Shown: positions 1,442 to 11,621 of the stretch, in pieces | Layout: each line of letters begins with the position of its first letter | How positions within the stretch are numbered: position 1 is the stretch's first letter | Sequence record: OQ411014.1 | Strand: one strand, 5' to 3' | Source: Escherichia phage EJP2 | DNA length: 64,000 nt | Notes under the pieces: generated by a model | What the model saw: only the letters and a program-made list of their open reading frames with translations | Told to the model about the DNA's origin: nothing | Database searches by the model: none | Made by a program: the position numbers and the translations under genes

Positions 1442-2071
1442 ATGACAACTCACGTTAGGTATTATATTGCATATAATGGAAGACCAGTTCGTTCTATTGG
1501 ATTAGATCTTGAGCCAGTAATGTCTGTACAGACTAATCTATACTTCAGTACTGAAGAAGAAGCAGACTCTTTCATTATGACTAGGATTGCAACTGCGTCC
1601 ACTACACTTTATCATATTCATTTTGATTGTATTGATAAGTACTCAATCGTCAAAGAAATTGTTCAGTTGGAACCGTGCAGTACTAAAACTAATTATATGC
1701 GAAACTATACTCTAACTTGGTTGCGATTACTCGACCAGGATATCTGTACTGATTCTATGATTTCCACTACTATACGTGCGTTCGTCATGCGTGGGTTTAG
1801 TACATCAGGATTGGATTTAGAAGAAGTGAAAAACTTGATTTTGGGTAATCCAAAACTTCAAAAAACCATTGACAAACTTATTCCAAAGCATATAATCTCT
1901 AATATTGAAAATTACATGCAAGATGGTTTAGTCAATGCTCCGGTGGAAGAGCTTGAATTCTTGAATCTAACAATTTCAGATGAAATGAAATTTGATCTTG
2001 ACTTCGAAGAACTCTTCCCTTACAATAAGTTCAAACCAACAAAATGGGAAAATCATGGAACTAGTAACTGA
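1442..2071 (+). CDS. hypothetical protein
   Basis: 209-aa ORF. No recognisable motifs. Confidence 0.6.
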   Translation: MTTHVRYYIAYNGRPVRSIGLDLEPVMSVQTNLYFSTEEEADSFIMTRIATASTTLYHIHFDCIDKYSIVKEIVQLEPCSTKTNYMRNYTLTWLRLLDQDICTDSMISTTIRAFVMRGFSTSGLDLEEVKNLILGNPKLQKTIDKLIPKHIISNIENYMQDGLVNAPVEELEFLNLTISDEMKFDLDFEELFPYNKFKPTKWENHGTSN

Positions 2072-3308
2072 AGGTCGCAAACTCGTAACAATTCGTAAAA
2101 TCAATGCAATTGATGCAATTGAAGGTGCAGATCTGATTGTCAAAGCAACTGTTGACGGTTGGGATGTAGTTGTGAAGAAAGATGAATTCAACGTTGGGGA
2201 TTACTGTGTATTCTTCGAAATCGATTCATTCCTTCCAGTACAGACACCACAATTCGCATTCTTGGCGGGTTCAGGCTGTAAACTCGATGAACAGAATGTA
2301 GAACGTTTCCGTCTACGTACTCGTAAACTTCGCGGGGTAGTCTCTCAAGGCTTGGCTCTACCAGTATCTCTATTTGAGGCAGTACTGGAAGCTATTGACG
2401 AAGCTGGTGGTCATCACCCTGACTCGTACACTACAACGGCACGTGAAGAACTCCTAGTGAGTCTAGAGGCGAATCGTGAAGGCATTGAGCAATTCCTCAA
2501 TGTAACCAAATACGAGCGTCCTGATGAGCGTAATGGCGGTACTGGTGCATCTAAGTGCAAAGCTGCTGGTAACTTCCCTATCGTCATTCCTAAGACTGAT
2601 GAAGACCGTATTCAGAACGTAATGGGTAAGTACTCTCAGACTATGAAAGGTGTTGCATTCCGTAAATCACTGAAACTGGATGGTTCTAGCCAGACAATTG
2701 CATTCATTAGCAATCCTGATTTCTTTGTAGATAAAGTTGATGAAGAAGTCCGTGCATGGAATGAAGAGACTCAAGAACTTGAAGTTGTTGAAGTGAAGCC
2801 ATACCCGTTCCAATGGGAAGATGGTCAGGTAGCAGTATGTTCTCGCAATCTTGCGTTGAAATTTGATGCTGAATCTCACTTCTGGAAAGCAGCACTGAAA
2901 GATGATATTCCAGCACGTCTGAAAGAGTACTGTGTTCGTAATGACCGCCAACTAGCACTACAAGGCGAAGTAATGGGTCCTGGTATCCAAGGGAACCGTG
3001 AAGAACTGACCGAACATCAATTCTACGTATTCCGTATTTGGGATATTGATAATAAATGTTTCCTTGATGATGGTGATTTCTTGACACTATCTGCACTACT
3101 GGGATTGACTACAGTACCGCAAGGTGATATCGTGTACTTCTTCGATGAATACACTTCTATCAAAGAAGCATTGGCATCTGCTGACCACGCATCTATCAAG
3201 CATAAGATCGCGGAAGGCGATGTGTTCAAAAGTGTATCTAAAGTGAATGGTGTTACTGTACACTTCAAGGTAATCAACAACAAATTCTTGCTCAAATGTG
3301 AGGACTAA
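2055..3308 (+). CDS. putative ATP-dependent RNA ligase (N-terminal OB-like domain plus nucleotidyltransferase domain)
   Basis: Covalent nucleotidyltransferase motif I KxDG (SLKLDGSS) and a motif-IV-like QGEVMG. N-terminal GADLIVKATVDGWDVVV...VGDYCVFFEIDSFLP resembles a tRNA-binding OB fold. Start moved from 1992 to ATG 2055, which has an RBS. Confidence 0.5.
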   Translation: MELVTEGRKLVTIRKINAIDAIEGADLIVKATVDGWDVVVKKDEFNVGDYCVFFEIDSFLPVQTPQFAFLAGSGCKLDEQNVERFRLRTRKLRGVVSQGLALPVSLFEAVLEAIDEAGGHHPDSYTTTAREELLVSLEANREGIEQFLNVTKYERPDERNGGTGASKCKAAGNFPIVIPKTDEDRIQNVMGKYSQTMKGVAFRKSLKLDGSSQTIAFISNPDFFVDKVDEEVRAWNEETQELEVVEVKPYPFQWEDGQVAVCSRNLALKFDAESHFWKAALKDDIPARLKEYCVRNDRQLALQGEVMGPGIQGNREELTEHQFYVFRIWDIDNKCFLDDGDFLTLSALLGLTTVPQGDIVYFFDEYTSIKEALASADHASIKHKIAEGDVFKSVSKVNGVTVHFKVINNKFLLKCED

Positions 3309-3916
3309 TGAAGAAAAAATTCGGCGTGGCGATAAATGACGCCGACTATGCTGTAACATCATATGACGATGCTGGTAAACGCCAGCATTGTCCCTTTTAT
3401 CGAAGATGGGCGAGTATGATAAATCGATGTTATGGTGATGTTGGTGCAACATACACTGAATCCTATGTATGTGATGAATGGTTAACCTTCTCTAACTTTA
3501 AGAGATGGATGGAAACACAAAAATGGGAAGGTATGGAGTTGGACAAAGATTTACTTTATATCAACAATAAGGAATATGGCCCAAATACATGTTTATTTTT
3601 ACCAAAGGTTATTAATTCACTATTCGTTGATAGTAAATCGAGCCGTGGTACTAATCCGATTGGTGTATCTTTTGAAAAACGTCGATTGAAATATGAAGCA
3701 TATATATCAATTGATAATAAGAAAAAACATCTTGGATATTTTGATAACCCAATTGATGCACATGTAAAATGGCAACATGCAAAATTGAAAGTATTGGAAG
3801 ATTTCATGAAAACGTTATCTGACCCTATACATATACAAATTGTAGATTTGCGAATCAACAAGCTAAAGAATGATATACAATCAAATATCATAACCGAATC
3901 TTTACATCATTTCTAA
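3308..3916 (+). CDS. AP2-domain protein, homing-endonuclease-like
   Basis: N-terminal YRRWASMINRCY...YVCDEWLTFSNFKRWM motif typical of phage free-standing endonuclease-like genes. C-terminal GVSFEKRRLKYEAYISIDNKKKHLGYFDNPIDAHVKW fits an AP2 DNA-binding domain. TAATG overlap with the upstream gene. Confidence 0.45.
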   Translation: MKKKFGVAINDADYAVTSYDDAGKRQHCPFYRRWASMINRCYGDVGATYTESYVCDEWLTFSNFKRWMETQKWEGMELDKDLLYINNKEYGPNTCLFLPKVINSLFVDSKSSRGTNPIGVSFEKRRLKYEAYISIDNKKKHLGYFDNPIDAHVKWQHAKLKVLEDFMKTLSDPIHIQIVDLRINKLKNDIQSNIITESLHHF

Positions 3917-4279: not shown

Positions 4280-5200
4280 GTGCATAAAGCGATACAAGAA
4301 CTCAAAACTCGTACTAAGGTTGTTCTATTAGTAAGTTTTCTGTTGCTTGCCGCTGCTATTGGATTATATGGTTTATATCAAAATGATCGTACTACATCAT
4401 CGGGTTCAGAAGAATCAGTAGTACAAAATCAAATTCAAAAGCAACCAGTTACAACGTTACCAATGCAAAAGGCAACAGTACTGGAAAGCAGGAAGCAATA
4501 CGTAGTGCAAGCAGGTGATAGTTATTGGATCATCACTAATAAGATGAAACCTAATAACGTTGAACCACTTGAGTATATGGCAGTACTGAAGAAAGTGAAT
4601 AACAATGTTCAGTTACACACTGCTGTACCAATCTACGTGCCGAATGACAATGATTTGATGCATGTTACATTACCAGATGTGGTTGTCAAATTTGACGTAT
4701 ACGACGATATTGTCGTAAACCACATCAAGGAAGCAGAAGGTTCGAAGGAAGCACAGTCTAATAACAAGAGACGTCTTCTGGGTGGTAAAGTAGGTCCGTC
4801 ATTTAGTAAAAATCGTTTCTATCCTTACAAGGACACGAAAGGAAATTATACTATTGGGTACGGTCATTATATTGGTCCCAAAGAGTCCGAAGCGAGAAAG
4901 TATCGTTTTGGGTTGACCGAACGTGAAGCACACAAACTGTTGATTCAGGATATGAAAAAGACTCGTGAAGATTTCATATTGTTGCTGAAGCGTAAAAATG
5001 CAGTGAATCTAAGTGTTGAACAGCAACGTGTTTTATACGAAATGGCATTCAACATGGGCGTTGACAAACTGAGTACATTTGGTAAACTATGGAAAAGTGT
5101 AGAACGTCAAAATGAAAAGAAGTTCAAAAAAGAAATTGAGAACTCATTGTGGTACAGACAAGTAGGCAACCGTGCTGAAATGTTACTGAGTTCTCTATAA
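4280..5200 (+). CDS. membrane-anchored LysM plus T4-lysozyme-like (GH24) muramidase
   Basis: GTG start with AGGAGG RBS. N-terminal TM helix VVLLVSFLLLAAAIGLYGLY, LysM-like YVVQAGDSYWII, and C-terminal YKDTKGNYTIGYGH...SLWYRQVGNRAEML matching the T4 lysozyme core. Confidence 0.7.
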   Translation: MHKAIQELKTRTKVVLLVSFLLLAAAIGLYGLYQNDRTTSSGSEESVVQNQIQKQPVTTLPMQKATVLESRKQYVVQAGDSYWIITNKMKPNNVEPLEYMAVLKKVNNNVQLHTAVPIYVPNDNDLMHVTLPDVVVKFDVYDDIVVNHIKEAEGSKEAQSNNKRRLLGGKVGPSFSKNRFYPYKDTKGNYTIGYGHYIGPKESEARKYRFGLTEREAHKLLIQDMKKTREDFILLLKRKNAVNLSVEQQRVLYEMAFNMGVDKLSTFGKLWKSVERQNEKKFKKEIENSLWYRQVGNRAEMLLSSL

Positions 5201-5216
5201 CAGAGAGGTGTTATAT

Positions 5217-5549
5217 ATGCTAAATGTAAACGTTCAAGGTAATGTAGAAATCACTGACGCAATTCATGAACATATTCTGGCTGAAGCGGATCATCTAGAA
5301 AAGTACAGTACTGATAAAGTACTGGAACTTGATGTTCACGTGAAAAAAGAACACAAAACTCAATACACTGTAACAATCGTTGGTAACGGCAAATCCAGTA
5401 CTGCCAACGCTGCTGATTTATACAAAGCAATCACTGACTCCTTTGGTAAAATGGATAAAGTGCTTGGTAAAGATAAGAGTGTAAAAATCAGTCGCCGTAA
5501 CAATCCTGTTCATCCTGTTGAAATTGACTTGACAGAAGACGAAGAGTAA
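5217..5549 (+). CDS. hpf: ribosome hibernation promoting factor / RaiA (YfiA) homolog
   Basis: NVEITDAIHEHILAEADHLEKY...DLYKAITDSFGKMDKVLGKDK aligns along its length with the bacterial HPF/YfiA family. ATG at 5217 with AGAGAGGTG RBS. Confidence 0.75.
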   Translation: MLNVNVQGNVEITDAIHEHILAEADHLEKYSTDKVLELDVHVKKEHKTQYTVTIVGNGKSSTANAADLYKAITDSFGKMDKVLGKDKSVKISRRNNPVHPVEIDLTEDEE

Positions 5550-5561
5550 TACATAATACAA

Positions 5562-5586
5562 GGAAGCCATATGGCTTCCTTTTTTA
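5562..5586 (+). terminator. rho-independent terminator
   Basis: Hairpin GGAAGCCATATGGCTTCC followed by a T-run. Confidence 0.6.
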
Positions 5587-5590
5587 ATAT

Positions 5591-6139
5591 ATGGAGAACA
5601 CAATGAGTGAATTTACAAAGGTAATCAATAAGGTTCGTAGTTTCACTGCTGAAGATTGGCACAGAACCAAACATGGCTCGTGGGAATCTTTTGACAAATA
5701 TAGTTTTCGTTCAGCAGATTATGAAATTATGTCCGAAGATATGGAAGATTTTGTTCTAGGTGATAGTACTCCATATCGTGAAGTACTCCCACTAATCGGT
5801 CATGTTGTTTGGCACGCTGAAGAGATGTCATATAGTAAAGATCTGCACTCAATTCAAATTATTGTTGGGTCTTCTAAAAGGAAAGGTGATATCACACTAT
5901 ATGTGCGTAAAGATTTGGTGTATCTGGTAAATGACACATTACGATACACGGAAAATCCCGAAGACTGCCCTACAGAATCGCAGTACTTCCAAATCTTACT
6001 TGAACAACCTGAATTTCCTGACATGTCCTACGATGAGTTCAAATCTTTGTTCACACTGTATGATCATTTGAACGAGGTAATCACAAAAGGTAAAACAATG
6101 ACATTTGCTGGGAGTAGATATCATGATTACAATGCTTGA
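5591..6139 (+). CDS. hypothetical protein
   Basis: 182-aa ORF (alternative start at 5603). Follows the terminator at 5562-5586. Confidence 0.55.
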   Translation: MENTMSEFTKVINKVRSFTAEDWHRTKHGSWESFDKYSFRSADYEIMSEDMEDFVLGDSTPYREVLPLIGHVVWHAEEMSYSKDLHSIQIIVGSSKRKGDITLYVRKDLVYLVNDTLRYTENPEDCPTESQYFQILLEQPEFPDMSYDEFKSLFTLYDHLNEVITKGKTMTFAGSRYHDYNA

Positions 6140-6242
6140 AGAAGACTGGGGCGTAGGTGGGGATTACAATCCATTTGAACCTGAAGAAAAAGAAGAGTCC
6201 CCATCGTGGTGGGATTGGGTTCGTGGATTATTCGGGCGATAA

Positions 6243-6657
6243 TATGAAAATAGAACCTGAACGCATTGCTAAACTAAAACAACTCATGGAACATACGTTA
6301 GAACTTCCACGAGAAAATCTAACATCATTCACAACCAAACCTTGGTGTACAGGTTGGTGGGTTAGTGATTATGTTTATGCTGATTATGACCACAACGAGC
6401 TAATGATTTGTGTACTGAAAAGTGACGTGGTGTGGGGACAGACTGGTAAGTTATACATAAGTTCAAATCACGTTCAATTGATAAAAACTGCACCACCGTT
6501 TACACTTAGCGTTCCGAGAATCAGTACTGAAGAAGAGTATTTTCAACAGTCAACACTTCATGATTTGACAAATTTGGACTTGGATTTCTTTTTGACTTGT
6601 AATAAACTCTATTCACTATGTTGCAGTTTACACACGATTGGGGATACAGATGTATAG
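6243..6657 (+). CDS. paralog-family protein 1 (conserved STEEE-YFQ-LHDL-LDLDFF C-terminus)
   Basis: First of four tandem paralogs. C-terminal ISTEEEYFQQSTLHDLTNLDLDFFL. Start set at ATG 6243 by alignment with paralog N-termini. Confidence 0.55.
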
Positions 6658-7042
6658 TCGTATGCTAAAAGAACTGAATGAACTTCTGGTGAATGTATTG
6701 GGATGGCCTGCTGATAATTACAGATACATCAGAGAACGTGATTTAGGAACCATCAGAGATTGCTGGGTGAATAAATTCACATTCGCAGAAGATAATTGTG
6801 GTGATGTTTCGGTATCTTTGTCTAAATGTTCGGATATTGATTTTTGTTACATCAAGATATTGGAAGATGCAGTGGAGTTCCGAAAAGGATTGTCTACGAT
6901 TTGGAGTTACCCACGATTGAGTACTGAAGAAGAGTTTTTTCAATTATCAGTACTGCATGATACATCTGGCTTGGATTTGGACTTCTTTTTGAATTGCACT
7001 AAACTATACAACCTGGGCAAAATTGCACTAATAGAGGGATAA
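6650..7042 (+). CDS. paralog-family protein 2
   Basis: C-terminal LSTEEEFFQLSVLHDTSGLDLDFFL. ATG at 6650 with GGGGA RBS. Overlaps the upstream stop. Confidence 0.55.
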   Translation: MYSRMLKELNELLVNVLGWPADNYRYIRERDLGTIRDCWVNKFTFAEDNCGDVSVSLSKCSDIDFCYIKILEDAVEFRKGLSTIWSYPRLSTEEEFFQLSVLHDTSGLDLDFFLNCTKLYNLGKIALIEG

Positions 7043-7043
7043 C

Positions 7044-7454
7044 ATGGCTATGAATCCAAATAAAGTAGTACAGCTAAGAGATTTACTACCGTACATTTTA
7101 GAACTTCCTGAGAAAGCACATAAACGATTGTCCTTCCGATATGAAGTTGGTGGTGGGTGGATCAATGACTTTGTGAATGTATTTTTCATCAATGACAAGC
7201 TCACAGTTTCCGTGACTGCTGATGTGGAGTTTAAAACTGGTTACTTCACTATAAGCGAAAATACAGTTGAATATTACACTTCCAATAAAGGTGGTGCGAA
7301 ACCGGAAATAACGTACAAACTTGTCAGTACTGAAGAAGAGCATTTCCAGGAGTCACTAATTCATGATTTAACACTTTTAGATCTGGACTTCTTCCTGAAC
7401 TGTGCTAAAATATACGCACTATGTGATGATTTGATCACGATTGATTATTATTGA
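7044..7454 (+). CDS. paralog-family protein 3
   Basis: C-terminal VSTEEEHFQESLIHDLTLLDLDFFL. GAGGGA RBS. Confidence 0.6.
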   Translation: MAMNPNKVVQLRDLLPYILELPEKAHKRLSFRYEVGGGWINDFVNVFFINDKLTVSVTADVEFKTGYFTISENTVEYYTSNKGGAKPEITYKLVSTEEEHFQESLIHDLTLLDLDFFLNCAKIYALCDDLITIDYY

Positions 7455-7462
7455 GGATTATA

Positions 7463-7864
7463 ATGTACAATAGTGTAATGATGCAGCATTTCACTACAAT
7501 GATTGGTGCTGCCATGAATAGTCCTAAACTGAAAACGTTACGCATCATTGATGGTGCGTGCTGGATTACAGAAAATGCTTTTATCTGGATGCATGAGAGT
7601 CGTGATAAATTAACTATCACAATAAAGCCATCATTTAGTTTAGAAGAGATACTACAACATAGTAGTATTGATATCAAACATGATAGTATAGATATTCGTA
7701 ACTCCCATAACCCAAAAGGTATTAATATCCCACGTATTAGTACTGAAGAAGAGTACTTTCAACAAAGTACTATTCATGATTTATCAAATTTCAACCTTGA
7801 TTTTTTCAAACAATGTGCAGTACTGTTCGATAAAACATGGGATCAACTTACATGGTGTAAGTAG
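7463..7864 (+). CDS. paralog-family protein 4
   Basis: C-terminal ISTEEEYFQQSTIHDLSNFNLDFF. ATG at 7463 with GAGGA RBS. Confidence 0.55.
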   Translation: MYNSVMMQHFTTMIGAAMNSPKLKTLRIIDGACWITENAFIWMHESRDKLTITIKPSFSLEEILQHSSIDIKHDSIDIRNSHNPKGINIPRISTEEEYFQQSTIHDLSNFNLDFFKQCAVLFDKTWDQLTWCK

Positions 7865-7891
7865 TATTTTACATTATTATGAGGAACTAAA

Positions 7892-9001
7892 ATGAAAAAG
7901 TATTTGGTTGGTGGTTTTGTACGCGATAAGCTACTTGGCTTACGTCCTAAAGACAAAGATTATGTCTTGGTAGGAGCGACCCCGCGTGATATTCAGTACT
8001 TAAAAAGTATTGGATATGAGCAGGTTGGTGCAGACTTCCCTGTGTTCTTGGATAAGGACGGCAATGAGCACGCACTTGCCCGTACTGAACGCAAGGTGTC
8101 TGATGGCTATAATGGCTTTGAAGTGAATACACAAGGTGTAACGCTTCAGGAAGACTTGTATCGTCGTGATTTGACCATCAATGCGATTGCCTTTGACCCA
8201 CAGTTAAAGGTACACGTAGACCCATATGGTGGCAAAGAAGACCTAAAGAACAAAGTACTGCGACATGTATCTGAACATTTTGAAGAAGATCCAGTACGTA
8301 TTCTGCGTATCGCTCGTTTCAGTGCACGTTATTCGGACTTTACAGTACATGAAAGTACTGAATCGTTGATTCGCCGTATGATCAATCGTGGCGATATTTC
8401 TGAATTGACTAAAGAGCGAGTGTACGTAGAATTCGAGAAAGCATTCTCCGAAGAAGAGCCAGTTATCTTCCTGGAGAAGCTATCCAAATGGGGAGCCATG
8501 AGTAAGTTGATTCCTGGTAATCCTGAAAGTACTTACAAGACTATTGAATACATTAGTTCCAATTGTACTTTAGCGTATAAGGATTTTTACTTGTGGGCTG
8601 AACTAATTGGTTCTAATGAAGTACAAAAAGATGGAGTCTTTGGTCAGGTCAAGCTACCATCGCGTTACTCTAAGTTCAGTGCGTATGTATGCAAGCACGC
8701 GGATAGTATCAAGAATTTCCGTAAGAGCACCCCAGAAGAAATGGTAAATATTCTTACTGAGATGAGCGTAAAGAACAACGGTGGTGAAGAGTACTTGTAC
8801 AAAGTACTGGAATACTTTATCCTACGTAAAGAGATTGATTTGGACTTAGAAGATTTGATTATTCGAGTTTATGATCGCTTTGAGAATACGGTCATTGGTA
8901 ATATTGATCAGATGCTTAAAGATGGAACTATCACTTCACGTGAAATTCCTTCTTTTGTGAAAGAGAAGCGAATCGCTGAGGTGGAAAAAATCTTCAAATA
9001 A
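7892..9001 (+). CDS. cca: CCA-adding tRNA nucleotidyltransferase (class II head domain, no HD domain)
   Basis: N-terminal LVGGFVRDKLLG...DKDYVLVGATP...GADFPVFL...ALARTERK...RRDLTINAIA closely matches bacterial CCA-adding enzymes. At 369 aa it lacks the C-terminal HD domain. Confidence 0.9.
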   Translation: MKKYLVGGFVRDKLLGLRPKDKDYVLVGATPRDIQYLKSIGYEQVGADFPVFLDKDGNEHALARTERKVSDGYNGFEVNTQGVTLQEDLYRRDLTINAIAFDPQLKVHVDPYGGKEDLKNKVLRHVSEHFEEDPVRILRIARFSARYSDFTVHESTESLIRRMINRGDISELTKERVYVEFEKAFSEEEPVIFLEKLSKWGAMSKLIPGNPESTYKTIEYISSNCTLAYKDFYLWAELIGSNEVQKDGVFGQVKLPSRYSKFSAYVCKHADSIKNFRKSTPEEMVNILTEMSVKNNGGEEYLYKVLEYFILRKEIDLDLEDLIIRVYDRFENTVIGNIDQMLKDGTITSREIPSFVKEKRIAEVEKIFK

Positions 9002-9002
9002 A

Positions 9003-9032
9003 TTGAGATATTTTCGAAAAAAGTGATATATT
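9003..9032 (+). promoter_or_regulatory. early promoter (TTGAGA -35, TGn TATATT)
   Basis: TTGAGA 9003-9008, TG 9024-9025, TATATT 9027-9032. Confidence 0.45.
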
Positions 9033-9064
9033 ATAAGTATCTGAGATATGTAAGAGATAAAAAT

Positions 9065-9742
9065 ATGCGATATACATGCGGGATAATATTTTATCGAAAC
9101 GGTCAGATACTTGTAGGTCACACGACTGGTCAGAGTCATTGGGATTTACCGAAAGGTAAGACTGAAGGTTCTGAGACATTCAAGGAAGCGGCAGTTCGTG
9201 AATGCTATGAAGAAACTGGATACAGTATTGATGAACGAGATTTACTGTACTTAGGTGATGTATCATACAGAAAGGGAAAGCGTTTAGTACTGTTCTTTTA
9301 CACAGCCAAGACGAAACCAATTGCTGAAGAGTTGCAATGTATCAGTACTTACACGAATAAGTACGGTATTGTACGTCCAGAGTTGGACAAATTCAAGTAC
9401 ATAGACATTGAGGACTGTGAACTCTACTTGACTGAACGGATGTGTGATAGTATAATCAAAGCTATTACACAATTTGATAAAAAGACAAATAAAAAGGAAG
9501 ATAATATGAAAGTTGTAATTTATGGTCGTAAAGCTGGTTGTAAGTGGTGTACTACTGCTAAAGAAGTTTGTGAAACTAACTCAATTGATTTTGATTTCAT
9601 TGATTTAGATGAAGCTGGTATTGATGGTGCTAAACTCGCTGAAATTTGTGGCACTCCAGTACGTACTGTTCCACAAATTTTCGTTGACGATCAACACATT
9701 GGTGGTTGTACTGAGTTTATTTCGCACCTATCCAAAATGTAA
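9065..9742 (+). CDS. Nudix hydrolase joined in-frame to a glutaredoxin-like domain
   Basis: Complete Nudix box GKTEGSETFKEAAVRECYEETGY. C-terminal 78 aa is glutaredoxin/NrdH-like (CKWC, TVPQIFVDDQHIGG) and has its own internal ATG at 9506 with an AAGGAAG RBS, but no stop separates the two domains. Confidence 0.7.
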   Translation: MRYTCGIIFYRNGQILVGHTTGQSHWDLPKGKTEGSETFKEAAVRECYEETGYSIDERDLLYLGDVSYRKGKRLVLFFYTAKTKPIAEELQCISTYTNKYGIVRPELDKFKYIDIEDCELYLTERMCDSIIKAITQFDKKTNKKEDNMKVVIYGRKAGCKWCTTAKEVCETNSIDFDFIDLDEAGIDGAKLAEICGTPVRTVPQIFVDDQHIGGCTEFISHLSKM

Positions 9743-9750
9743 GGTTTCAA

Positions 9751-10002
9751 ATGTCAAGTCTTCAAGAATTCCATAACAAAAGTTCTGCACAAGCCCAGCG
9801 ACTTGCTAAACATTTTGGTGTAGAACTCAAGATGCCGGATTTAGCAGAAATAGAAGCGAAAGCAAAGCATCGCATCATGTTGATGGAGAAGTATCATGAG
9901 CAGAAAGATATGTACGATGCAGCGATTCATAAACTGCTTGACATTGTACCTGCTGATGTATTACAATCTATCATATCGAAACTGCTAAATTCTTCGAAAT
10001 AA
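9751..10002 (+). CDS. hypothetical protein
   Basis: 83-aa ORF. No recognisable motifs. Confidence 0.5.
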   Translation: MSSLQEFHNKSSAQAQRLAKHFGVELKMPDLAEIEAKAKHRIMLMEKYHEQKDMYDAAIHKLLDIVPADVLQSIISKLLNSSK

Positions 10003-10053
10003 ATAACAATGAAGGGTAACAAATCCTTCGTTATGAAATTTGGGAGAAATACT

Positions 10054-10299
10054 ATGACTAGTTTCCGTGAACAATTGGCTCAAGGTAAATTCGAGAGCAA
10101 AACATCCAGTACTAACATTCCTAAGAAAAGTGCTTTTCTGGGAACAATTACTGAAGATGGTTATTGTGATTACAACGTGCCAGAAGACTCTTGGTATGTT
10201 AGTAAGGACATGAAACGCAGTATTCGCTTACACCAAAGTACGGTTGCGAGAAAACAACGTAAGGAACTTCGTCGTTTATTGACGGGTTCTGAAGACTAA
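10054..10299 (+). CDS. hypothetical protein
   Basis: ATG at 10054 with GGGAGA RBS; the ORF track starts earlier at 10009. Followed by the terminator at 10307-10336. Confidence 0.45.
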   Translation: MTSFREQLAQGKFESKTSSTNIPKKSAFLGTITEDGYCDYNVPEDSWYVSKDMKRSIRLHQSTVARKQRKELRRLLTGSED

Positions 10300-10306
10300 T
10301 AATTTA

Positions 10307-10336
10307 AAAGGACTCCTAAATCAAGAGTCCTTTTTT
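10307..10336 (+). terminator. rho-independent terminator
   Basis: GGACTC ... GAGTCC stem followed by TTTTTT. Confidence 0.55.
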
Positions 10337-10350
10337 CATCGAGATAAAAT

Positions 10351-10851
10351 ATGAATAACATCACACATCACGTAGGAAATCTTTTCAACTTATATAAAGA
10401 AGTAGGTGAAGAGAATAACAGTACTGATAGTGAAGTAATGAACGTTATTATTCATGGTTGTAACGCACAAGGTCGTATGGGTTCTGGTTTTGCTAAAGAA
10501 TTACGTGCACGTTTTCCTGGTGCTTATAACGAATATAAAAAACAGTACGAAAGTACTGGACTTCAGTTAGGAAAGAACGTATACTACTTACCACATGATG
10601 AAAACACCCTTATCGTAAATGCTATCACTCAAGAGTATTACGGATATGATGGTAAGAAGTACGTTAGTTATGACGCAATTGATGATTGTATGATTGAACT
10701 AAATACTCTACTTTCTGGAATGGATGGAAATATCCAAATTCACTTCCCAAAAATCGGAGCCGATTTAGGTGGTGGTAATTGGGAAGTAATCAAAAGTATC
10801 ATTGAAACACGGGTAATCTTTGGTACTAAGCATCTATATACCCTAGTATAA
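10351..10851 (+). CDS. macro domain protein, TARG1/OARD1-like ADP-ribosyl hydrolase
   Basis: HGCNAQGRMGSGFAKELRARFPG and PKIGADLGGGNWEVIKSIIE match the RMGAGIA and RIGCGLDRLQWENV segments of TARG1-type macro domains. Confidence 0.7.
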   Translation: MNNITHHVGNLFNLYKEVGEENNSTDSEVMNVIIHGCNAQGRMGSGFAKELRARFPGAYNEYKKQYESTGLQLGKNVYYLPHDENTLIVNAITQEYYGYDGKKYVSYDAIDDCMIELNTLLSGMDGNIQIHFPKIGADLGGGNWEVIKSIIETRVIFGTKHLYTLV

Positions 10852-10882
10852 TTTTATCAATAACTTCAAAGGAATGAACAAC

Positions 10883-11215
10883 ATGGCTACTGAAAAAGCA
10901 CAAATCGTCGTAAAACTACTACACATTGCAGGTCAAGGTCCAGTACTAGCAGTACTACAAGGTGAAACCAACGATTCCCTAATCACCATGCATCCAGCAC
11001 AACTTGGTCAAGATGAGAATGGCGATATTCAAATCCTATCCTATCTTGGTGGTCTAGTTGCTGAAGATGCACCAGTAGTATTCATGAAGTCTAACATTGT
11101 TGCGGTATGTGAAGTTGAACCGACTCTAGGTAAAGAATACGTTTCTGCTGTAGAAGCATTGACAAAATCCTCTGTTGGTGTTATTATGCCTCCAGAAAAG
11201 AAAATCATTCTATAA
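10883..11215 (+). CDS. hypothetical protein
   Basis: ATG at 10883 with AAGGA RBS. No recognisable motifs. Confidence 0.5.
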   Translation: MATEKAQIVVKLLHIAGQGPVLAVLQGETNDSLITMHPAQLGQDENGDIQILSYLGGLVAEDAPVVFMKSNIVAVCEVEPTLGKEYVSAVEALTKSSVGVIMPPEKKIIL

Positions 11216-11234
11216 GACAAAATAAGGTACTAAT

Positions 11235-11621
11235 ATGATCCGTAAAGAAGACACCAAACCAGTTGTAACTTTCCAAGCAATCGTAGTACTGAAAGGTACT
11301 GCACCAGAAGTCATTGCAGCAGAGTTAGTAATGGCAGGGATGACTACTCTACATCAGTACAATCCAAAGTCCAATTCATTTGTAGGTAATTATGAAGCGG
11401 GTGAATTCACTAAACATTGGGATTCATGGGTAAAAGACAATGACTTGCGTCAAGCTGTGTACTTTGCGGATAATATTGACCAGCTAAACGAAGTATCGTA
11501 TTTGGCAGAACTAGAAAGCGTTCCAATGAACGCATTCGATGAAGATAGTAGTGTTCTAGTACTGGGACCGTTCAGTGGAGAACGTATTGACTATCTGACC
11601 ACGAACTTCACTAAAGCATAA
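11235..11621 (+). CDS. hypothetical protein
   Basis: 128-aa ORF. No recognisable motifs. Confidence 0.55.
   Translation: MIRKEDTKPVVTFQAIVVLKGTAPEVIAAELVMAGMTTLHQYNPKSNSFVGNYEAGEFTKHWDSWVKDNDLRQAVYFADNIDQLNEVSYLAELESVPMNAFDEDSSVLVLGPFSGERIDYLTTNFTKA

Follow-up and report, generated by a model that had tools for sequence, protein, structure and literature searches.

Iyer et al. proposed in 2021 (PMC7824862) and 2022 (PMC9503650) that the Macro, NADAR, and Nudix proteins of jumbo phages degrade ADP-ribose-derived signals or toxins and that tRNAs damaged by host immunity are restored by the phages' CCA-adding enzymes and RNA ligases, and the same papers report that Macro and Nudix co-occur above chance. 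We analyzed a block of genes at positions 5208-10851 on the + strand of a 64,000-nucleotide stretch of Escherichia phage EJP2 (OQ411014.1), which is called the window below and to whose full length coordinates refer unless another record is named. Macro, Nudix, CCA-adding enzyme, and RNA ligase genes are common to this locus and the repertoire of Iyer et al., whose papers make no mention of HPF, of a glutaredoxin link, of this gene order, or of the paralog family described below. With a probability of roughly 0.6, we conclude that the block is a conserved array of accessory genes, placed between the lysozyme gene on one side and the neck-tail module on the other, and that these genes act separately and are transcribed separately rather than forming one machine.

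The nearest described relatives of several individual genes have been studied in other phages. Knocking out tk.4 makes T4 sensitive to DarTG2, and the name adfM has been given to this gene (HIDEN-SEQ preprint, 10.1101/2025.11.20.689424), while PhiKZ gp104 (AdfM) strips DarT2-placed ADP-ribose off DNA in vitro (Cell Rep 2026, PMC13309987). T4 NudE.1 hydrolyzes ADP-ribose, Ap3A, FAD, and NAD in vitro and decaps NAD-RNA, and the NudE.1 preprint states its contribution to defense or counter-defense as undetermined. For phage RaK2, the authors of the 2013 report proposed that the CCA-adding enzyme matures the phage's own tRNAs. A preliminary description of the block had presented it as a combination not described before. 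The genes are in fact annotated in dozens of public genomes, and the counter-defense idea was published in 2021 and 2022. The block opens no new category of system, and both the concept and most of the components had been published before.

Gene content and conservation of the block

All of the genes that had been claimed to lie within about 6 kb on one strand were recovered at their positions on the + strand by profile and structure searches, within a dense run of + strand open reading frames (ORFs) that makes up the block and its flanks. The principal genes are as follows.

5208-5549, + strand: HPF/RaiA homolog, short form, acidic; 113 amino acids from GTG 5208 or 110 amino acids from ATG 5217
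5591-6139, + strand: paralog 0, diverged and longer, 182 amino acids (jackhmmer E = 9e-16 after iteration; alignment)
6244-6657, + strand: paralog 1, 137 amino acids; the ORF opens at 6157 and the likely start is ATG 6244
6638-7042, + strand: paralog 2, ~130-134 amino acids (alignment)
7044-7454, + strand: paralog 3, 136 amino acids (alignment)
7451-7864, + strand: paralog 4, 133-137 amino acids (alignment; AlphaFold2 model)
7892-9001, + strand: class II CCA-adding tRNA nucleotidyltransferase that has the head and neck domains and lacks the HD domain
9023-9742, + strand: fused Nudix-glutaredoxin ORF, with a NudE.1-type Nudix domain at ~9065-9500 and a GrxA-like glutaredoxin at 9506-9742
10351-10851, + strand: orphan macrodomain of the TARG1/DarG class, Tk.4 (AdfM-T4) subtype, 166 amino acids (PF01661)

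Sequence similarity assigns the window to a jumbo myovirus of the Rak2/GAP32-like kind. Among public genomes, that of Erwinia phage Hallingskeid (366 kb) is nearest, with 75% nucleotide identity over the CCA-to-macro segment, followed by that of Cronobacter phage GAP32. The window is near-identical (92-100% amino acid identity per gene) to L008, a metagenomic contig of 125 kb (Logan SRR22213601). Five relatives from at least three genera were compared (L008, Hallingskeid, JP4, pEa_SNUABM_12, and K64-1). The order lysozyme, CCA, Nudix, glutaredoxin, small basic ORF (orf81), macro, two small ORFs, neck, and deoxynucleoside monophosphate (dNMP) kinase is kept in all five, and only the HPF gene, the paralog copy number, and an HNH gene vary. 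The GC content of the block (0.37-0.39) is the same as that of the rest of the window. Because this GC content is ordinary and the core order is present in 5/5 relatives, the earlier designation of the block as an island is not supported, and the block instead represents core synteny of the phage group. Every block gene is intact and under purifying selection, with a ratio of nonsynonymous to synonymous substitution rates (dN/dS) versus L008 of at most 0.51, in a comparison whose sequences are too close (98-100% identity) for positive selection to show.

The genes of the block are distributed unequally among phages, which argues that they are separate genes: matches to the macro family occur in 2,423 phage records, T4 Tk.4 included, compared to 1,281 for the Nudix half, 505 for the CCA enzyme, and 42 for HPF. 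We also found no recurrent co-location in independent lineages, because the homologs in phage rV5 are scattered (RaiA at 98 kb, Tk.4 at 120 kb, glutaredoxin at 85 kb, and RNA ligase at 67 kb, i.e. 13-50 kb apart) and because Tk.4 and NudE of T4 are separated by 6 kb that holds unrelated genes. Furthermore, a single functional unit is doubtful because the HPF gene is absent from this site in K64-1 and the RNA ligase gene is not adjacent to the block in JP4 or K64-1.

These observations bear on the proposal, made in the preliminary description, that the block is one counter-defense toolkit whose genes cooperate in mending or protecting ribosomes and the 3′ ends of tRNAs and in clearing away ADP-ribose or nucleotide adducts. 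We consider such a toolkit unlikely, and hold the same view of the set of immune systems that it would counter (anticodon nucleases, toxSAS/MenT-type tRNA-end toxins, and DarT). The proposal is favored by the tight packing of the genes on one strand in a core order that is invariant across five phages, by the homology of the macrodomain to AdfM, by a general hypothesis already in print (Iyer et al., PMC7824862, PMC9503650), and by the pattern of divergence from Hallingskeid, in which HPF (50% identity), macro (57%), and the paralogs (28-42%) are set apart from the more slowly changing CCA, Nudix-glutaredoxin, and neck genes (76-88%). However, the whole region, with its neck, dNMP kinase, and sheath genes, is equally syntenic, and therefore adjacency and synteny say little. 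The components occur independently in other phages, neither HPF nor the RNA ligase is a constant neighbor, and related genomes carry the T4-type repair pair (Rnl1 and PNK) and the NAD-salvage genes at other sites. Moreover, the literature searched ties neither a phage CCA-adding enzyme nor a phage HPF to any defense system, and conserved terminators and several promoters split the block, as detailed below.

Promoters and hairpins within the block

Promoters of the sigma70 type and terminator-like hairpins were predicted at the following positions.

1869-1896, + strand: consensus sigma70-type promoter TTGACA-16-TATAAT (12/12), upstream of the RNA ligase gene
5529-5557, + strand: near-consensus sigma70-type promoter TTGACA-17-CATAAT, ending 3 nucleotides ahead of the hairpin at 5560-5581
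5560-5581, + strand: GC-rich terminator-like hairpin with a T-run, directly past the HPF stop codon
9428-9456, + strand: near-consensus promoter TTGACT-17-TATAAT, inside the fused Nudix-glutaredoxin ORF and ~45 nucleotides upstream of the glutaredoxin ATG
10306-10336, + strand: terminator- or attenuator-like hairpin with a T-run, directly ahead of the macro start codon

Further promoters are predicted at 9938 and 11159.

Both hairpins are positionally conserved in five phages (the window and four others) with stems that differ and compensate, and across these phages the inner stem of the hairpin at 10306-10336 covaries. The T-run of each hairpin lies 10-15 nucleotides from the following start codon, and because of this short gap the hairpins may act as attenuators or RNA-stability elements, which would make them less than full stops. 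For promoters, the near-consensus class was defined as sites that match at least 11 of the 12 hexamer positions. All five such sites in the region are oriented with the coding strand (0.28 expected), and all 16 in the whole window, its structural-gene part included, lie on the + strand. This pattern suggests that the phage leans heavily on host RNA polymerase with sigma70. Note that the enrichment is confined to the near-consensus class, as the total of sigma70-like sites at a loose threshold (49 versus 45 in shuffles) shows no excess. The T4 late-promoter motif TATAAATA was also searched for and was dropped after it gave four matches versus 5.9 expected. Because two conserved hairpins and five near-consensus promoters are predicted inside the block, a single transcription unit is not supported, and these elements, together with the unequal phage distributions and the dispersal in rV5, argue against the single module that had been claimed. 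The promoter at 5529-5557 probably drives the paralog array.

The macrodomain protein

The macrodomain protein matches PF01661 with 24 bits against a cut-off of 22 (Pfam Macro, E = 4e-5). The PADLOC DarG model gives E = 1e-12 over positions 15-132 of 329 only, and the NCBIfam DarG model NF048014 gives 6e-10 (38.8 bits versus a cut-off of 250) for the macro half only. The best solved relatives by sequence are BT1257, Poa1p (6lfu, E = 8e-7), SCO6735, and DarG macrodomains, with TARG1 at E ~0.6. An AlphaFold2 model with a predicted local distance difference test (pLDDT) score of 86 was used for Foldseek searches, which ranked BT1257, Thermus aquaticus DarG, Poa1p, SCO6735, Mycobacterium tuberculosis DarG, and TARG1 (template modeling [TM] scores of 0.7-0.84; 0.73/0.79 for the DarG structure 5m3e) above MacroD-type and viral macrodomains. 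Judging from the ranking of the predicted structure and from the DarG models, the earlier label 'TARG1-like' holds at the level of class. In a comparison by eye, the protein reads ITQE where TARG1 reads ITKK and IGADLGGGNW where TARG1 reads IGCGLDRLQW, and the catalytic Lys84 and Asp125 of TARG1 thus appear not to be matched. A MAFFT alignment that included TARG1 misaligned the catalytic region, and an alignment with Tk.4 and PhiKZ AdfM was used instead.

The protein and T4 Tk.4 are 34% identical (E = 3e-16) and have the motifs HGCN..MG.G and N-x-[YI]-T-Q in common. In the sequence-based alignment, which includes PhiKZ AdfM and no DarG, Asn38 is invariant and corresponds to DarG N22. Like the AdfM proteins T4 Tk.4 and PhiKZ gp104, the window protein is a stand-alone macrodomain of ~155-166 amino acids of the DarG/TARG1 class with a conserved Asn, although its similarity to PhiKZ AdfM is limited to an N-terminal stretch of 46 residues and its gene adjoins neck genes, whereas T4 tk.4 lies in the tk region. 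The C-terminal DarT-binding domain of DarG is absent from its 166 amino acids, and no ADP-ribosyltransferase gene is adjacent. On the basis of this homology, the protein is predicted to be an ADP-ribosyl glycohydrolase of the orphan-antitoxin type and of the T4 Tk.4/AdfM kind. By analogy with its genetically validated homolog, it would remove ADP-ribose that DarT2-type toxins put on thymidine of phage DNA, and SCO6735, a close neighbor in structure, cleaves thymidine-linked ADP-ribose on DNA. The earlier guess that this gene counters DarT is thus well grounded in the Tk.4 homology and the DarTG2 sensitivity of the tk.4 knockout, and this is already known biology.

A quite different reading is that the block serves metabolic housekeeping with no link to immunity, in which the macrodomain and Nudix proteins clear ADP-ribose-1''-phosphate and ADP-ribose, the glutaredoxin feeds ribonucleotide reductase, and the CCA-adding enzyme matures tRNAs. 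The presence of Poa1p, an ADP-ribose-1''-phosphate phosphatase, among the best solved matches by sequence and at Foldseek rank 3 is consistent with this reading, as are the PHROG/GenBank family label 'phosphatase / Appr-1-p processing,' the nearby dNMP kinase gene, the thymidine kinase gene upstream in L008, and the tRNA genes of relatives that lack an encoded CCA. Nevertheless, the nearest phenotyped phage homolog, T4 Tk.4, is conditionally essential only when DarTG2 is present, and the DarG models outperform the generic macro model (PADLOC E = 1e-12 versus Pfam Macro E = 4e-5). The metabolites in question would come from NAD-dependent RNA-end processing (KptA/Tpt1) or from NAD turnover, and the block showed neither a KptA/Tpt1 gene nor one for a 2H phosphoesterase. 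We therefore regard a purely metabolic role as improbable, and these metabolite sources as equally so.

Two observations concern the surroundings of tk genes. In the T4 record, tk, tk.4 (macro), and nudE lie within ~7 kb (60.9-67.5 kb), and in L008 a thymidine kinase gene (1478-2032) lies ~3 kb upstream of the RNA ligase gene. The e lysozyme gene presumably also belongs to this T4 stretch, although the feature tables examined do not list it. The block may be an expanded relative of the T4 tk-e accessory region.

The CCA-adding enzyme

The CCA-adding enzyme matches PF01743 (E = 5e-20), PF12627 (E = 4e-9), and phrog_2244 (E = 3e-108), which confirms the earlier identification. Class II CCA-adding enzymes are defined by a motif set comprising the catalytic DxD (A), RRD (B), and the EDxxR nucleotide template (D), and motifs A, B, and D are present in the translation as GGFVRD..DKD, RRD, and EDPVR. 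The best NCBIfam rows are CCA-adding enzymes (276 bits) and pcnB (104 bits), each below its own cut-off. The head and neck domains align with Escherichia coli Cca (PRK10885) over residues 1-208 of 409 (E = 3e-82). Unlike E. coli Cca, the phage enzyme has no C-terminal HD phosphohydrolase domain, and its C-terminal 160 residues are instead phage-specific (phrog_2244). Among the 505 matching phage records, ~75 match over at least 80% of the protein, with Rak2-like jumbo phages on top. A PADLOC match to GajB (E = 0.004) was judged generic or due to chance.

Three of the seven tRNA genes predicted in K64-1 and three of the eight predicted in JP4 have no encoded CCA; JP4 was taken in place of Hallingskeid, whose tRNA cluster was not among the matches listed in the similarity search. 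Because ~40% of the tRNA genes in these two relatives are without an encoded CCA, the need for CCA completion is real. From its sequence, the enzyme would complete or repair tRNA 3′ ends, and its first job is probably the maturation of the phage's own tRNAs. Host tRNAs with damaged ends would be open to repair by the same reaction.

The Nudix-glutaredoxin ORF

The joining of a Nudix hydrolase to a glutaredoxin, as reported in the preliminary description, was verified by matches of ORF 9023-9742 to PF00293 (Nudix, E = 6e-13) and PF00462 (glutaredoxin, E = 1.4e-11, 44.9 bits versus a cut-off of 22.9). The Nudix box GX5EX7REUXEEXGU is intact (GKTEGSETFKEAAVRECYEETGY), and the Nudix half, which is similar in size to T4 NudE/NudE.1, is 39% identical to it over 124 residues (E = 1e-21). 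It is therefore a predicted NudE.1-type pyrophosphatase that would act on ADP-ribose, NAD, Ap3A, and NAD-capped RNA. PADLOC matches to PDC-S07 and PDC-M53A were considered generic or chance hits.

Unlike in T4 NudE.1, the Nudix domain is here fused in frame to a glutaredoxin, which has a CKWC (CxxC) motif, matches E. coli Grx1 (4e-14), and scores 82.5 bits against the NF008401 GrxA model (cut-off 84). The fusion occurs in the window, L008, and Hallingskeid only, whereas JP4, pEa_SNUABM_12, and K64-1 have two separate genes, and it looks like a stop codon lost between two genes. Inside the fused ORF, the glutaredoxin ATG at 9506 has its own Shine-Dalgarno sequence, AAGGAAGA. Because of this sequence, the start codon, and the internal promoter at 9428-9456, the phage probably continues to produce free glutaredoxin. 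The ribonucleotide reductase operon of rV5 includes the glutaredoxin gene, which argues for an ordinary reductant role, and the domain is most likely a GrxA-like reductant for the phage ribonucleotide reductase. The idea of counter-defense finds support for the macrodomain through its AdfM homology and, loosely, for the Nudix half through NudE.1. For the CCA-adding enzyme and the glutaredoxin, simpler housekeeping explanations are available.

The HPF homolog and the RNA ligase

The HPF/RaiA assignment was upheld by scores above cut-off for both PF02482 (E = 1.7e-12, 48.3 bits versus 23.7) and TIGR00741 (41.8 bits versus 40.9), and the E. coli HPF structure 6h4n is matched with E = 2e-5. Scores against the subtype models are 27 bits for PRK10470 (HPF, cut-off 125) and 21 bits for PRK10324 (RaiA, cut-off 158). 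The protein has no C-terminal dimerization domain. Its dN/dS of 0.02 versus L008 indicates strong purifying selection, and its 42 tblastn matches all come from Rak2-like jumbo phages of 310-384 kb. RefSeq already labels the gene HPF/RaiA, a gene so annotated occupies the same position in PBECO4, 121Q, and related phages, and the GAP32 ortholog (AFC21633) was reported by Mizuno et al. in 2019 (PMC6375957). The phage HPFs of GAP32 and of the rV5 group are of the same Pfam family and short form as the window protein, which is diverged, with 34-66% identity to other jumbo-phage copies. No later functional work on phage HPF was found in the literature searched. A short HPF of this kind would presumably bind the 30S decoding region, where it may protect ribosomes against hibernation imposed by the host or against nucleases, or may throttle translation.

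The RNA ligase candidate that had been noticed upstream of the block was likewise substantiated.

2055-3308, + strand: ATP-dependent RNA ligase of the Rnl5/DRB0094 type; the ORF opens at 1992 and the likely start is ATG 2055

It scores 226.5 bits against TIGR02306 (DRB0094 type; cut-off 151), matches PF21189 (N-terminal OB domain, E = 1e-33), PF09414 (nucleotidyltransferase domain, E = 1e-19), and phrog_968 (E = 2e-102), and shows the KxDG motif as KLDG in the translation.

One further reading would have these genes serve self-regulation, with the macrodomain and Nudix proteins reversing the phage's own ADP-ribosylation or RNAylation (compare T4 Alt/ModA/ModB and NudE.1) and HPF tuning late translation. 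T4 has both homologs, Tk.4 and NudE.1, the NudE.1 preprint discusses links to NAD-RNA and RNAylation, and the HPF gene comes directly after that for lysozyme and ends in a terminator. On the other hand, no ADP-ribosyltransferase gene was identified in the annotated part of the window, the phenotype of T4 Tk.4 is specific to DarTG2, and the sigma70-like promoters, which occur throughout the window and in its structural region too, give no expression timing. We consider self-regulation very unlikely.

A tandem family of acidic paralogs

Between the HPF and CCA genes, four tandem paralogs had been described. Their paralogy stands, as paralogs 1-4 have the C-terminal motif S-T-E-E-E-[YF]-F-Q..S..H-D...L-D-L-D-F-F in common, and the count is corrected to five, because an iterated profile adds ORF 5591-6139. 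The motif TEEE[FY]FQ.S..HD is family-wide. Most copies are small and acidic, with isoelectric points of 4.3-5.3, and all are intact and under purifying selection versus L008. Copy number ranges from one to ~6 across the relatives with detected copies, and none was detected in pEa_SNUABM_12. Where detected, the paralogs lie immediately upstream of the CCA gene, and after the HPF gene if one is present.

Pfam gave no match to the window paralogs, for which PHROG returned only weak matches to families of unknown function. A Pfam match of ORF 5591-6139 to GSP_synth (E = 0.007, 16 bits versus a cut-off of 29) was rejected. A word-indexed search recovered 23 unnamed relatives, and an exhaustive profile search expanded the family to 95 clusters at 50% identity, small proteins throughout; none of ten diverse distant members carries a Pfam domain. 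The paralog profile has no match among PDB sequences. The AlphaFold2 model of paralog 4 (pLDDT 78) runs from an N-terminal helix through a six-stranded beta-meander to a pair of C-terminal helices, a predicted fold that weakly resembles p32/MAM33, and structure matches in BFVD are uncharacterized proteins only, mostly from GAP32, RaK2, and their jumbo-phage relatives. On a 4.8-kb metagenomic contig (L020; Logan SRR15306717), one of 7-8 tandem unannotated genes encoding 190-250 amino acids is a distant family member (P0079).

Novelty within the block is confined to this family, for which neither a fold nor a domain match is known. The five acidic paralogs appear to constitute a lineage-specific, copy-number-variable family that would be expressed from a host-type promoter. 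It is a long shot that they represent a new host-takeover or anti-defense class acting on the translation apparatus. If they did, their fixed site between two translation-related genes would reflect a functional tie and their variation in copy number an arms race.

Flanking genes and other features

The remaining genes in and around the block are as follows.

3308-3916, + strand: HNH endonuclease gene (phrog_953, E = 2e-79), in 0/5 relatives
4280-5200, + strand: phage lysozyme (PF00959, E = 2e-11; phrog_15410, E = 2e-134), left neighbor of the block, in 5/5 relatives
9751-10002, + strand: small ORF, 83 amino acids (phrog_34640 and phrog_26469), not detected in K64-1
10054-10299, + strand: orf81, small basic ORF of 81 amino acids with an isoelectric point of 9.4 (phrog_15319, E = 9e-42), 63-100% identity in 5/5 relatives
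within 10874-11621: small ORFs orf113 and orf128, 113 and 128 amino acids (phrog_527, phrog_14786), in 5/5 relatives

The start of the HNH gene overlaps the RNA ligase stop codon (ATGA). The gene, which none of the five relatives has, probably represents a homing-endonuclease or mobile insertion outside the conserved block. The N-terminal stretch of the lysozyme appears hydrophobic by eye. The macro gene is flanked by four conserved small ORFs (83, 81, 113, and 128 amino acids), and in pEa_SNUABM_12 an extra, translation-related gene annotated 'aspartyl-tRNA amidotransferase' (GatB/YqeY-like; 8868-9275 in the segment of that phage) lies between the glutaredoxin gene and the small ORFs. In the K64-1 record, regions far from the block (287-308 kb and 128-131 kb) hold genes for T4-type RNA ligase 1, nicotinate phosphoribosyltransferase, PhoH, and ribonucleotide reductase. 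The same regions encode a bifunctional NMN adenylyltransferase/ADP-ribose pyrophosphatase, and thus a second, NAD-salvage-linked Nudix elsewhere in that genome. An Rfam scan of the whole window gave zero matches.

Observations that weigh against the proposed reading

Several observations count against a row of separately acting genes with the functions proposed above. Five phages, which represent at least three genera, share the invariant order CCA, Nudix, glutaredoxin, orf81, and macro, and this could reflect functional coupling, although the neck and dNMP kinase genes are equally invariant. In the macrodomain, Gln94 occupies the aligned 'T-K' position and so replaces the catalytic Lys of DarG (K80) and PhiKZ AdfM (K78), the equivalence of these two residues being taken from the PhiKZ paper (PMC13309987). 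The same residue is present in T4 and rV5 Tk.4, and the evidence on T4 Tk.4 is genetic (10.1101/2025.11.20.689424). Moreover, the closest characterized enzyme by sequence is the yeast phosphatase Poa1p, because of which a small-molecule substrate is possible. The tRNA evidence comes from the relatives K64-1 and JP4, and no tRNA gene was found in the whole window. Finally, the HPF of rV5, which was independently acquired, was not detected on ribosomes (PMC6375957).

Implications

On homology, the macro gene is a strong candidate for an anti-DarTG2 factor of the Rak2-like jumbo phages, a group with several members that are being studied for therapeutic use against E. coli, Klebsiella, and Erwinia. 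It can be targeted directly, rather than through the 6-kb 'island' as a whole. Two further elements of the block merit attention, namely a phage HPF under strong purifying selection and a family of small acidic proteins that varies in copy number.

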